A stretch of DNA of 64,000 nt from a virus. Positions 2,677-56,569 of this stretch are shown here, piece after piece (positions within the stretch are counted from its first letter, which is position 1; the number at the start of each line of letters is the position of its first letter). A model generated the notes under the pieces. It ran no database searches. It was not told the DNA's origin and saw only the letters and a program-made list of their open reading frames with translations. The stretch covers positions 64,001 to 128,000 of the IMG/VR virus record IMGVR_UViG_3300032753_001573; one strand, given 5' to 3'. Position numbers and translations under genes: made by a program.

Positions 2677-3137
2677 TGCCTACTAAGAAACTGGTTCTCA
2701 ATAGCAAGACTAACATGTTTGGTACCAATCTCAAACTAAGCACTCGAGACGGCTCACATAAATTTTCTGTAGGTAATAATATCAGTTATGATCCTACAAA
2801 GAAACTCAGTAAAAAGCTAGAGACTGGATACCTGTTTAGGAGCCCAAAGTTGGATCCAACTGATCTTTCGGAAATTTGGGACACTGTCGAAGGCTTTGCG
2901 GGTGCTGCGTCGTTGACAGCAGAAATTGATACCAAGAGCAACGAAGTTACTGCCTACATGCGGATCGCCGAAAAGGGCGACGCTGGTATGTTTGCTTACA
3001 CTCATAGCTTGTTTGAAAAGTGGAGCGATGAGAAGACAGCAGAAGCCAAGAAGGACAAGAAGAAGGCTCCCAAGCTTGTTGTTAACAAGGACGGAACTGT
3101 TAAAGTTCGAGTACAAGTAGAATCCCTAGGCAACTAA
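2676..3137 (+). CDS. Hypothetical protein
   Basis: 153-aa ORF coupled to the upstream stop (TAATG). Confidence 0.6.
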   Translation: MPTKKLVLNSKTNMFGTNLKLSTRDGSHKFSVGNNISYDPTKKLSKKLETGYLFRSPKLDPTDLSEIWDTVEGFAGAASLTAEIDTKSNEVTAYMRIAEKGDAGMFAYTHSLFEKWSDEKTAEAKKDKKKAPKLVVNKDGTVKVRVQVESLGN

Positions 3138-3139
3138 TA

Positions 3140-3520
3140 TCAATCAATTGCGCGGACCAAAGTTATGGTCCGCCTTTTAATCCTCTTATTAATCATATCT
3201 TTGAGATTAACTACCGGACCTTGTAAAATTTCAGTGTCCTTTTTGGCAAAAGTCTTTAGGTATTTCCTATAGGGCGAAAATCTGTTTTTTAGAAACATGT
3301 TAATAGGGATTGAGCGGTTGCTCTCCCACCACCATATTTCTCCGCATTCTAAGAAATCTCTTTTCATATCAGCAGTAAAACTGATATCCATTACATATAT
3401 GCTTACAAACAAATTGTCGGCATGCTGTATTATTCCTAAATGTTCTTTGCCTAAATGATTGATTATGGTTAAAAATGGGAATTTTTCTTGTAATAATTTA
3501 TAAGTATCTTTATTTGTCAT
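3140..3520 (-). CDS. Conserved hypothetical jumbo-phage protein
   Basis: WWWESNRSIPIN motif; minus-strand TAAATA motif upstream (~3550). Confidence 0.6.
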   Translation of the reverse strand: MTNKDTYKLLQEKFPFLTIINHLGKEHLGIIQHADNLFVSIYVMDISFTADMKRDFLECGEIWWWESNRSIPINMFLKNRFSPYRKYLKTFAKKDTEILQGPVVNLKDMINKRIKRRTITLVRAID

Positions 3521-3601
3521 TTTGAACTTTGCATGTTATAAAGCTAGGTTATTTAGTAATCTAATTTGCTAAATATCTAATAACTGCATGAAGAAAAGCT
3601 T

Positions 3602-4447
3602 ATGCCACTTGTATACTTATTCAAATTTCCAGAATACATACATCTTGTCAAGGCTGATCCTCTTGCCCCCAACATTAACTGGCCCATGATACAGTATGAT
3701 ACCAAAGTCTTCAAAGGCGTTACGAACAATATTGATTTCGTAGTACGTAACAATGATCGAAAACCAATACAGCTTTTCAACTGTCAATTGGACGCGCAGA
3801 TTCAAAAGGTAAACACTCCTAGCAACAGTATGGATTTCTTACCAGAGCTACAGCTTATAAAACCTGTGATAATAACAGACGATGTTAATGGAAAGGCAAG
3901 ATTGACACTCTTACCTGAGGACATACAGCATTGGGACCCAGGTTACTATCAATATGTAATAAAGATATTAAGTGGTTCTGGACAGTCAGAATACTTGTAT
4001 ACTGATGTAAACAAGAACACTTTTGGTTCATTTGAACTTAAAGAAGGTGTTATAAGTAGTTTAGCCCCTGCTATAGAGATTGACAATTCTCAGTTTACTC
4101 CTACTCCCGTAAATTTATATGATTATACTATATGGGTGTCTGGTGCAGTTCAAGGTGATGCGCAAACAGGACGTGCGAATGGTACACATACTGTAGCTGT
4201 TTATCAAAATAACTTCTTAGGTAAATTTTGGGTACAAGGGAGTTTGAGTAGCGATGCTCCGTTACCAGATGAATGGTTTGAAGTCCCATTAACGCCCACG
4301 TTTAATTATTTTGAATTTACTCAATTCAACAATAATATAGGACCCACTCTCATTAATTTCAGTCTCAATGTCTATTGGCTGCGTTTTGTCTATAGACCAG
4401 ACGTAGCAAATACAGGTACTTTTGGTCGCGTCTTGTATAAGGGCTAA
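3602..4447 (+). CDS. Putative virion structural protein (beta-rich)
   Basis: Late CTAAATA motif at ~3569; beta-strand-rich composition. Confidence 0.5.
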   Translation: MPLVYLFKFPEYIHLVKADPLAPNINWPMIQYDTKVFKGVTNNIDFVVRNNDRKPIQLFNCQLDAQIQKVNTPSNSMDFLPELQLIKPVIITDDVNGKARLTLLPEDIQHWDPGYYQYVIKILSGSGQSEYLYTDVNKNTFGSFELKEGVISSLAPAIEIDNSQFTPTPVNLYDYTIWVSGAVQGDAQTGRANGTHTVAVYQNNFLGKFWVQGSLSSDAPLPDEWFEVPLTPTFNYFEFTQFNNNIGPTLINFSLNVYWLRFVYRPDVANTGTFGRVLYKG

Positions 4448-32278: not shown

Positions 32279-32426
32279 GCTTGTATTTTAATAGATACAT
32301 CTATAGTTGACATGCTAGATAAAAGAGTATACCATATTAGAAGAGTACATATTTGTCTTGTTCTAATATGTTCTCGTTTTCCATTATAGCATTGACAATC
32401 TTACGCCATTGTGCTATACATATCGC

Positions 32427-32498
32427 GTGCTTGTAGTCTAATGGTAAGATATGTGACATCCCAGACACGATGAGAGGTTCGACTCCTTTCCTAGCACA
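32427..32498 (+). tRNA. Degenerate tRNA-like element (anticodon arm aberrant; Gly-like TCC/CCC)
   Basis: Acceptor GTGCTTG/CTAGCAC, D-arm GTCT-AATGGTA-AGAT, T-arm AGAGG-TTCGACT-CCTTT; anticodon stem out of register; no encoded CCA. Confidence 0.6.
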
Positions 32499-32548
32499 AT
32501 TTAATTATAGGGTCTTTACATTCTCATAAACCTGTGCTATAAATAAAA

Positions 32549-32885
32549 TAGCTGTTGTTGATACCAACGGAGATAGCTGGATCGGAAGCGGGAGGCAGAG
32601 CCCGCCCACTCCACCAAAGATACATCGTGAGGGGCTAGTTATACGGCGCATTTGAACAAAGTATAACCCACTGTGTAATAGTGATCATAAAGACAGTGAG
32701 CGGTGTATCTTTGATGGGGTGGAAACAGGATCGACGGACGTTGAAAAGGTTGGAGTAGATAGCCGTGCGCAAGCGACGTACCGCAAGAAAACTATAAGTG
32801 TCAACGATAACGTGGCACCTTATGAGATGAGCCTCGCGGTTTGACCTCAATGGGTTTGGTTTAGCCTGGAAACAGAATTAAACCA
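32549..32885 (+). ncRNA. ssrA: Circularly permuted two-piece tmRNA (alphaproteobacterial type)
   Basis: Acceptor piece ends CCACTCC-A-CCA (32616); coding piece starts GGGGTGGAAACAGGATCGAC (32716); G3.U70 pair; tag frame 32800-32844 VNDNVAPYEMSLAV; CCTGGAAACAGAA 3' hairpin. The 5' end is approximate. Confidence 0.92.
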
Positions 32886-32912
32886 AAGAGGGCGGGAAAC
32901 CGTCCTCTTTTT
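32885..32912 (+). terminator. Intrinsic terminator of ssrA
   Basis: AAAGAGGGCGG-GAAA-CCGTCCTCTTT followed by T-run. Confidence 0.85.
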
Positions 32913-33149
32913 ATTGACAAATATATCAATGATATCATAAACTACTATTGTTACATAGAAATTGTAACATATAAATATGTTGGTGGTAATAGCAGACTAT
33001 TGCCATCCAACGAGAAATGATAGATACTGACTAAGAACTAGAAATATTATATTTAATTATGTATGGTTAGCCACGCGATGAGCGTAGAATTAACCAGATC
33101 TAAATGATGATGTTATTTAAAGTTTTATGAAATAAGTATTTGAAGCTAT

Positions 33150-33187
33150 AGAGGTAACAACACTAGGTGTTGTTACCTCTTATCTTT
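33150..33187 (+). terminator. 14-bp perfect hairpin, probable terminator
   Basis: AGAGGTAACAACAC-TAG-GTGTTGTTACCTCT then TATCTTT. Confidence 0.6.
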
Positions 33188-33280
33188 GGTAGCTCATTGA
33201 CAAATAACTATAATACATGCTATCTTATTATGATCATGTAAATTCAGTATAAAATAAAATAAACAGAAAGAATTATATAG

Positions 33281-55303: not shown

Positions 55304-56569
55304 ATGAATATGGCAGGACAGAACAAGATCCTACGTCAATGCAGCTTCTGCGGCAAAAACCAGCTACAAGTGCAGAAACTAATCAATGGCAATGATGTGT
55401 ATATTTGCAATGAATGTGTAGATCTTTGTCACAGCATATTGTCGCAGGATGACGACTCAAAGCCGTCAAAGACTGACAAACGTATGATACCAGAGGTTAT
55501 CAAATCCTATTTGGATGAAAGAGTAATAGGCCAAGATACAGCAAAGACTATATTGAGTGTAGCAATTTACAACCACCTACAAAGGGTAGAGAATCCTATT
55601 GTAGACGGAGTAGAATTAGATAAGAGCAACCTATTGTTCATTGGACCCAGTGGTAGTGGTAAGACTTATTTGATACAAAATGTCAGTAAGCTACTTGATA
55701 TTCCTTTTGTAATTATCGATGCTACCAGTCTAACTGAAAGTGGTTATGTTGGATTAGATGTTGAGGATTGTATAGCACGTTTATATCAAGCATCAGGTGG
55801 GGATATTGATAAAACTCAGCGTGGCATTGTTTATATAGACGAGATTGACAAGAAAGGTCGTAAAGGAGAGAACGCTAGTATTACTCGCGATGTAAGCGGC
55901 GAGGGTGTGCAGCAAGCTCTTCTGAAAATGATCGAAGGTTGCGAAGTCAAAGTGCCTCCGCAGGGAGGTCGCAAGAATCCTCACGGCGAATATGTAACAG
56001 TGGATACCAAAAACATCTTGTTTATATTGGGCGGAGCGTTTGTTGGTATTGAAGATGTTGTTAGCAAGCGTCTAGATACCAATAACACTGGTATAGGATT
56101 TATGGCCACAATGCCTGGTGATAAACCAGACCCAGAACAAGTTCGCAAGATGATGAGGTCTGTAAAACATGAGGATGTAGCTAAGTTTGGTTTGATTCCA
56201 GAATTAATTGGACGTCTACCAATTATTGTTCCGTTTGATCACCTAAAAGAAGAGGATTTGATCAGAATTCTAACAGAGCCTAAGAATGCTGTAGTCAAGC
56301 AATTCCAAAAACAATTTGAACTTGATAATGTTAGGTTAGAGTTTAGGGATGCTGCATTGAAAGCGATAGCAGAACAAGCTATCGAAAAGAAAACTGGTGC
56401 TCGAGGATTGCGTAGCATCATAGAGAACATCCTGTTGCCCGCGCAGTTTGAATTACCGTCTCTGCAGGACAAGGGTGTAAGTACCGTGGTGGTCACGGAA
56501 AGCTGCGTCACTGATGGTCAGGACCCAGTTAAAATTTACAGGAGTGAAACAGAAGTTGCCAATAATTAA
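55304..56569 (+). CDS. clpX: ATP-dependent Clp protease ATP-binding subunit ClpX
   Basis: CSFC/CNEC zinc-binding domain, [30 protein letters not shown] loop, TGARGLR. Confidence 0.97.

Follow-up and report, generated by a model that had tools for sequence, protein, structure and literature searches.

We analysed a 64,000-nucleotide stretch of viral DNA (positions 64,001 to 128,000 of the IMG/VR record IMGVR_UViG_3300032753_001573, hereafter the window) and describe here a circularly permuted transfer-messenger RNA (tmRNA) gene on its + strand together with the structured RNA held in its spacer. In the permuted order of this gene the acceptor piece, with its CCA at 32614-32616, stands upstream of the coding piece, whose first nucleotide G1 is 32716. 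An initial annotation had proposed a phage-encoded permuted two-piece tmRNA with a long structured intervening segment, and every element that it named is found where it had been placed. The interior of the spacer belongs to a conserved RNA family that occurs both in permuted tmRNA genes and in phage transfer RNA (tRNA) arrays. The parts of the gene (nt, nucleotides; bp, base pairs) and of the spacer, in which P1 to P3 are the three helices, are as follows:

32515-32545, + strand: promoter, with the -35 element TTTACA at 32515-32520, a 17-nt spacer and the -10 element TATAAA within TATAAATA at 32538-32545
32550-32616, + strand: acceptor piece with an approximate 5' end, consisting of the helix 2 5' strand, the T-arm, the acceptor 3' strand and ACCA
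32588-32605, + strand: T-arm, with GCGGG at 32588-32592, the loop AGGCAGAG at 32593-32600 and CCCGC at 32601-32605
32606-32612, + strand: acceptor 3' strand CCACTCC, followed by the discriminator A at 32613 and CCA at 32614-32616
32617-32715, + strand: spacer (intervening segment), 99 nt
32617-32628 with 32700-32711, + strand: P1, the 12-bp closing helix of the spacer
32629-32637, + strand: junction GAGGGGCUA
32638-32667, + strand: P2 hairpin with the loop GGCGCAUUUGAACAAA
32669-32698, + strand: P3 hairpin with an 18-nt loop that holds the palindrome UGAUCA at 32682-32687
32712-32715, + strand: tail UGAU
32716-32886, + strand: coding piece, from Rfam alignments and an nhmmer coding-piece profile (E 9e-30)
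32716-32722, + strand: acceptor 5' strand GGGGUGG, with G1 at 32716
32728-32735, + strand: GGAUCGAC element, from Rfam alignments
about 32736-32790, + strand: helix 2 3' strand and pseudoknot-1 region
32800-32841, + strand: tag frame VNDNVAPYEMSLAV, with the stop codon UGA at 32842-32844
within the coding piece, + strand: 3' hairpin region, which includes CCUGGAAACAGAA
32887-32915, + strand: intrinsic terminator, made of a G+C-rich 9-bp hairpin (GAAA loop) and the run UUUUAUU behind it

A covariance-model search, which the initial annotation had named as a check on its claim, placed a permuted tmRNA at 32511-32887 on the + strand with a score well over the cut-off for RF01849 (alpha_tmRNA; 90.2 bits, cut-off 50, E 3.7e-23) and a match to RF04321 (tmRNA_permuted; 67.6 bits, cut-off 47). 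The acceptor stem forms 7 bp (GGGGUGG/CCACUCC) next to the discriminator A32613, and the alanine identity pair G3.U70 predicted earlier is read as G32718.U32610. Helix 2 was aligned in both Rfam models with a few non-canonical pairs and the GGAUCGAC element is present. The acceptor piece was aligned by Rfam and also matched an nhmmer profile of relatives' acceptor pieces (E 3e-13), while the coding piece aligned with those of relatives having tags of the form ANDN...LAA. An independent lake metagenome holds an identical piece covering 32524-32674, and two further lake metagenomes hold pieces identical to the coding part. The whole gene folds with z = -5.0 relative to shuffled sequences, and dozens of related contigs have a tmRNA at the same site, ahead of topoisomerase II. 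Taken together, we regard it as close to certain that the window carries a real tmRNA gene.

The gene also has its own promoter and terminator, as had been proposed. TTTACA and TATAAATA are 17 nt apart, and relatives keep a corresponding TTGACA..TATAAATA arrangement ahead of their syntenic tmRNAs; the promoter fits both a sigma-70 and a T4-type late motif. Our promoter scan gave another register because it demands a T at position 6 of the -10 hexamer. The 9-bp hairpin with its U-run at 32887-32915 appeared in the fold of the whole gene, and a terminator-like hairpin with a T-run is also present in the relatives L009 and L003; a simple scan for consensus terminators did not list the hairpin at 32887-32915.

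For the spacer a three-way junction had been drawn earlier, and the minimum-energy fold of the 99-nt segment matches it exactly. The spacers of syntenic relatives measure 2-4, 12-24 or 66-101 nt and their interiors are unrelated. A long spacer is thus not required by the tmRNA, since many relatives manage with 2-4 nt. All of the long spacers are closed by a helix that begins right after the CCA. The outer helix AGAUACA / UGUAUCUUUG is common to the window, L012 and L023, whose interiors are unrelated to one another, and in L009 the outer helix encloses almost nothing; L037 carries the interior of the window within a different helix. Helix and interior therefore behave as separate modules, the former being kept in L012, L023 and L009 and the latter in L037.

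The 101-nt spacer of L037 aligns with that of the window such that all stems differ by compensatory changes and the junction and loops are the same. A covariance model (R1) built from these two spacers found L076 and a copy in the metagenome contig L101, where it lies between tRNA-Lys and tRNA-Ser and outside any tmRNA. Relaxed pattern scans of viral contigs, with matches confirmed by covariance models, widened the family to 22 distinct sequences in about 32 contigs; the window spacer itself scores 117.7 bits with R1 and 108.2 bits with the model R2. In the consensus, P1 has about 12 bp and is followed by the junction GAGGnGCUA(G), then by P2 with 7 bp and the 16-nt loop GGCAnAnnYGAACAAA, a single C, P3 with 6 bp and an 18-nt loop, a single A and the P1 3' strand. 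The junction GAGGnGCUAG and the loop motif GAACAAA are near-invariant across the family, and over the 22 sequences the unpaired junction and loops are more conserved than the stems.

In the alignment of the 22 sequences 97% of cells are paired and 24 of the 29 pairs show changes on both sides. None of 500 shuffled controls reached any of the observed covariation measures, and pairing fell to 25-52% when the partners were slid. As this alignment had been fitted to the model, the analysis was rerun with RNAalifold on 18 members aligned by plain MAFFT; the three-way junction came out again, 22 of its 26 pairs being compensated. The L101 copy on its own also folds to the same shape. It is the related sequences that support the fold, and by them the structure of the spacer is established; folding energy does not do so. 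We conclude that the interior is very probably a structured RNA under selection. The earlier suggestion that the excised segment could be a separate RNA is strongly supported by comparison of the 22 sequences, 7 of them outside tmRNA genes, while its release and stability are matters of inference.

The searches also returned matches that we set aside. Weak model matches in L126 (antisense, inside a topoisomerase gene), L073 and L053 were discarded, 11 of the 12 matches of the first viral pattern scan were due to chance, and a metagenome scan gave one true match (L101) and one chance match (L102). The window genome holds one copy of the motif, and one copy per genome was found where this was tested. 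A strict motif pattern run over 185,579 prokaryote genomes gave only two chance matches, both in coding DNA; only 3 of the 22 variants satisfy this pattern, and copies of the motif may thus also exist in bacteria.

The members of the family are confined to slots between two tRNA-type ends, a 3' end (CCA) and a 5' end that forms a ribonuclease P (RNase P) site. Fifteen of them sit in tmRNA spacers, with ...CCACCA before and GGGG..GGAUCGAC after the motif. The other seven sit in phage tRNA arrays (L106/L114, L108, L101, L125, L152, L154 and L145), where the motif begins 0-3 nt past an encoded CCA in L101, L106, L145 and L154 and ends 0-5 nt ahead of the next tRNA in L125, L152 and L106. Among the array carriers is a complete phage of 162 kb, and the family thus extends beyond the giant clade to which the window belongs (see below).

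The locus in L108 (1660-1930, - strand) has a layout of its own. A T-arm, an acceptor 3' strand and ACCA lie upstream of the motif, and GGGGCUU followed by a canonical-looking D-arm lies downstream. Rfam gave no tmRNA match at this locus and the downstream 101 nt score only 29.9 bits as a tRNA. It could be a permuted tRNA-like gene or a permuted tmRNA without a tag.

The P3 loop carries a further regularity. Of the 19 short-form members, 18 carry a perfect 6-nt palindrome, always at the same six loop positions, and five versions of it occur (UGAUCA, UGUACA, UCGCGA, CGGCCG and CAGCUG); the remaining short-form member has the imperfect GGAUCA. A 2-bp mini-hairpin does not explain these palindromes because each version is self-complementary in its four central bases. 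The long-form members L101, L145 and L125 have a real hairpin of 4-7 bp at the position of the palindrome. Evidently the site calls for a helix, which the long forms build intramolecularly; in the short forms it would most simply arise between two molecules. Predicted duplex energies at the palindrome range from -6 to -14 kcal/mol. On this sequence evidence we give about an even chance to the idea that the RNA dimerises through its palindrome.

Comparison with known RNAs returned no homologue of this passenger RNA. Rfam 15 gave no match on 32610-32722 even at E<=10, the segment shows no homology to ROOL, GOLLD or the dimerisation site of human immunodeficiency virus 1 (HIV-1), and at eight other motif loci no Rfam match at gathering thresholds overlaps the motif. 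A blastn search against 50,697 isolate phage records found no match for the tmRNA gene or for the motif. Of the known ribozymes and riboswitches, hammerhead, twister-sister, hepatitis delta virus (HDV)-like and glutamine types were not found by Rfam, and the junction strands misfit the hammerhead core. We found no published description of the motif, a catalogue of about 10,000 candidate viral structured RNAs (PMC10690425) lying outside this comparison, and the passenger family is apparently undescribed.

Of 133 distinct phage tmRNAs in one count, 53 were of the two-piece kind (PMC9004378). The gene described here resembles those of Methylophilales phage Melnitz and Pelagibacter phage Mosig in being an alpha-type permuted ssrA, with a promoter ahead of it, in a T4-like or large aquatic phage (PMC9004378). 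As in Melnitz, where a glutamine riboswitch was reported in the 3' domain of ssrA (PMC9004378), an extra structured RNA is embedded in the tmRNA gene. In contrast to Melnitz, the embedded RNA of the window lies in the excised spacer, has no Rfam match including glutamine riboswitches, and also occurs outside tmRNA genes. The spacers of known permuted tmRNAs (RF01849, RF01850, RF01851 and RF04321; PMC11915505) likewise lie between CCA and G1 and are absent from the mature tmRNA. Whereas the spacer in the Rfam permuted models is a short unstructured insert, that of the window holds a covarying RNA family shared with tRNA arrays. Exceptional spacer cargo has been reported in the form of an intact tRNA-Ala in one bacterial case and a repetitive element in another (PMC11915505).

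The nearest functional analogue known to us is the pair rnaC/rnaD of phage T4 (RNAs C and D, also species 1 and 2), small stable RNAs of unknown function encoded beside tRNA genes (next to tRNA-Arg in the T4 record). RNAs C and D are matured together with the tRNAs. The likeness is one of location inside a tRNA-type precursor between tRNA processing sites, each of the 22 members being found in a tmRNA spacer or a tRNA array. The T4 tRNA cluster also contains a GIY-YIG homing endonuclease gene, segB, and L081 has a SegE-like gene in its tmRNA slot. Homology to rnaC/rnaD was rejected: the model R2, run with filters off over the T4 tRNA cluster, gave only noise and nothing on rnaC or rnaD, and the predicted folds differ.

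For the palindromic loop, the dimerisation initiation site of HIV-1 offers a parallel, as an RNA that associates with itself through such a loop. Like that site, the P3 loop has a 6-nt self-complementary sequence in a purine-flanked loop, here kept palindromic through covarying changes. ROOL and GOLLD are phage-linked RNAs, often near tRNAs, that form homo-oligomers (PMC12286853). They are 500-800 nt long as against about 100 nt for the passenger, whose putative dimer is read from sequence.

We propose the following course of events. The promoter would give a single precursor made of the acceptor piece, the 99-nt spacer, the coding piece and the terminator. A cut by RNase P at 32715/32716 would create the 5' end of the tmRNA and the 3' end of the passenger, and 3' maturation at the CCA (32616) would free the passenger 5' end. 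Both tmRNA pieces would stay paired, be charged with alanine and work with SmpB of the host, and the tagged proteins would pass to the phage ClpX. The freed RNA of about 100 nt, its ends shielded by P1, would persist and act in trans, probably as a homodimer formed through the palindromic loop. Cleavage sites, stability, dimerisation and function of the passenger are all inferred here. The residue at position -1 to the RNase P site, before G1, is U in most of the tmRNA-type members.

As the best reading of these data, the window probably encodes a functional phage alpha-type two-piece tmRNA whose spacer serves as a passenger slot emptied by tRNA-processing enzymes. Release of the passenger as a separate stable RNA seems somewhat better than an even proposition. 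Beyond this, and a little short of even, we suggest that the spacer is a phage small RNA of a new, trans-acting class. It would be an exchangeable passenger on tRNA and tmRNA precursors, forming a homodimer by a kissing loop and a monomer where a hairpin replaces the palindrome. It might bind a host or phage factor in the takeover of translation, with tmRNA spacers and gaps in tRNA arrays serving as one cargo slot.

Several observations weigh against this picture. The spacer folded alone barely beats shuffled sequences (z = -1.9). The covariation counts obtained with the R models rest on model-fitted alignments, which the RNAalifold rerun mitigates, and they are not counts of independent events because many members are close relatives. 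At the proposed cut, the tail UGAU can pair with three of the four ACCA bases, and the precursor may thus form a helix of about 23 bp with one mismatch, a substrate that would be poor for RNase P and better suited to a double-strand nuclease. The tmRNA itself is unusual. Its T-loop has 8 nt (AGGCAGAG) on a 5-bp stem where relatives have 7 nt (GGCRGUA), its resume codon is for Val (GUC) instead of GCU, and its tag ends in LAV instead of LAA. ARAGORN, the other program suggested for checking the gene, rejected it and called no tmRNA in the window, also when run on it directly. Yet the program says little about the gene, since it likewise passes over L007, L009, L118 and L142, among others with high Rfam scores, several of them above 100 bits; it does call relatives with equally long spacers. 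The T-arm and tag peculiarities are not assembly errors because contigs from three other samples match the window without a difference over the T-arm, the tag and the initial part of the spacer.

These oddities could be taken as signs of a defective or decoy tmRNA that does no tagging and may interfere with trans-translation of the host. A tmRNA-like RNA of phage DS6A that lacks a tag frame is reported to inhibit the host tmRNA (mentioned in PMC11915505), and no SmpB was found in the phage studied here. But the tag frame is complete with its stop, G3.U70, ACCA and GGAUCGAC are intact, and the Rfam score is 90 bits. Moreover, the same 8-nt loop AGGCAGAG is found in L142 (6940-6990) on a T-stem with compensatory changes (GUGGG/CCCAC as against GCGGG/CCCGC in the window), the tag of L140 likewise begins with Val, the sequence is identical in samples of different studies, and ClpX and ClpP are kept in the phage clade. 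We therefore consider a decoy improbable. Less far-fetched, but still unlikely, is that the spacer is only a cis-acting scaffold for processing and folding, whose helix joins the acceptor strands and marks the cuts and which is degraded after excision. The outer helix shared by the window, L012 and L023 around quite different interiors, and the nearly empty L009, would fit such a role. It is at odds with the many relatives having spacers of 2-4 nt, which show that no scaffold is required, with the stronger conservation of the unpaired junction and loops than of the stems, and with the same interior in tRNA arrays, in which no permuted gene needs holding together.

Slightly more doubtful than the decoy are two explanations that take the interior as a product of descent or of mobility. 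In one of them the passenger would be what is left of a tRNA gene, or derived from one (a pseudogene or a mimic lacking the D-arm), and conserved through recent common descent. Its topology does resemble a cloverleaf without the D-arm, having a terminal helix, a 9-nt junction and two hairpins 1 nt apart. It is also located among tRNAs, an intact tRNA-Ala occupies the spacer of one bacterial permuted tmRNA (PMC11915505), and the spacer of L057 has a T-arm-like GGUUCGAAUCC. However, the loops have 16 and 18 nt instead of 7, there is neither an anticodon-like loop nor a CCA, the Rfam tRNA model has no match on the passenger at E<=10 and ARAGORN makes no call there. Stems that vary freely but with compensation around fixed loops are the mark of a specific fold under continuing selection. 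With a similarly low probability, the cassette could be a selfish mobile element that spreads between tRNA-type junctions without benefit to the phage. Its distribution is patchy, as closer topoisomerase relatives carry other interiors and the more distant L037 carries that of the window. Motif-bearing tmRNAs are scattered on the tmRNA tree, which is a hint only, the alignment being short and the tree without support values. In L081 a SegE-like GIY-YIG endonuclease gene and a duplicated acceptor fragment occupy the same slot. Against this, the cassette encodes no protein and lacks terminal repeats, single copies per genome were found where this was tested, and a passive hitch-hiker would have no need of the strong conservation seen in the loops.

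The window is a fragment of a lake phage with a genome of roughly 430 kb. The IMG/VR record that holds it spans 155.7 kb and is estimated to be 36% complete, and the window DNA was seen again in lake-water metagenomes from several studies, whereas no RNA run was listed as carrying it. The genes around the tmRNA are phage replication genes, among them the small subunit of ribonucleotide reductase and, directly downstream of the tmRNA, both subunits of topoisomerase II. Complete relatives reached via the topoisomerase are contigs of 416-490 kb, from which we take the window phage to be a giant phage.

The initial annotation had read the permuted ssrA as pointing to an alphaproteobacterial host class, an assignment that now appears weak. 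Permuted ssrA is also present in cyanobacteria and in one betaproteobacterial lineage. The best-scoring Rfam model for the window gene is of the alpha type, and among motif-bearing phage tmRNAs both alpha-type (GGCAGNA) and canonical (UUCRAYU) T-loops occur. Phage Melnitz carries an alpha-type two-piece tmRNA and infects a host of the OM43 clade, which is not alphaproteobacterial (PMC9004378). The alpha-type score does not fix the host class because of this counter-example and of the mixture of T-loop types.

Further along the window lies a gene that may act with the tmRNA:

55319-56527, + strand: ClpX (TIGR00382, 527 bits, above cut-off; Pfam ClpX zinc finger and AAA_2)

In bacteria ClpX is the unfoldase that recognises tmRNA tags. 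Five complete relatives (424-465 kb) each have ClpX and one or two ClpP genes, and SmpB was found neither in the 155-kb fragment nor in these five relatives. As the phage has the tagging RNA and the unfoldase, and its complete relatives also the protease, without SmpB, the latter must come from the host. The presence of ClpX together with the variant LAV tag suggests a pathway of tagging and degradation that may be under phage control. Phage tmRNAs are known but, to our knowledge, nobody has shown their benefit to the phage; a phage tmRNA with a variant tag next to a phage ClpX, and ClpP in the complete relatives, makes such a phage-run pathway testable.

The spacer of permuted tmRNAs has so far been regarded as throw-away, and here it holds a conserved, covarying RNA with a dimer-type loop. 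If the passenger reading is true, tmRNA spacers and gaps in tRNA arrays would form one general cargo slot for phage non-coding RNAs. The copies between tRNAs point to a way in which large phages may express small RNAs without promoters and terminators of their own, using the tRNA-processing enzymes of the host. A defined 100-nt RNA with 22 natural variants also provides material for structure determination and for the search for partners. Since ARAGORN failed here and in several relatives, genes of this kind slip past annotation pipelines.

Other syntenic spacers have contents of their own. The interior in L040 (2599-2683) consists of three tandem copies of a unit of about 23 nt unrelated to that of the window, the interior in L057 (2993-3071) is the unit with the T-arm-like GGUUCGAAUCC, and L023 (1446-1544) and L012 (2985-3050) have two further folds inside the window-type outer helix. 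In L081 (836-1900) the SegE-like GIY-YIG endonuclease open reading frame (906-1379) lies between a truncated acceptor copy without CCA (836-891) and the intact acceptor piece, which looks like a homing-endonuclease insertion with partial duplication of its target. The closest topoisomerase relative, L002 (85% identity), has no tmRNA upstream of its topoisomerase gene and has protein-coding DNA of much higher G+C there (2700-4000).

Directly upstream of the tmRNA, a tRNA-like gene at 32392-32498 of the window has its own promoter, TTGACA-17-TATACA (32392-32420). Its anticodon region is aberrant, with a loop of about 10 nt, and its acceptor stem has one U.U mismatch. It scores 22.4 bits with the Rfam tRNA model (cut-off 29), ARAGORN reports it as 'tRNA-??? 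(cc)' only at a lowered threshold, and no counterpart was found in the loci of relatives. Downstream, a strong 14-bp terminator-like hairpin at 33150-33180 stands between the tmRNA unit and the topoisomerase gene, and several sigma-70-like promoters occur near it (32914-32943 and 33186-33226).

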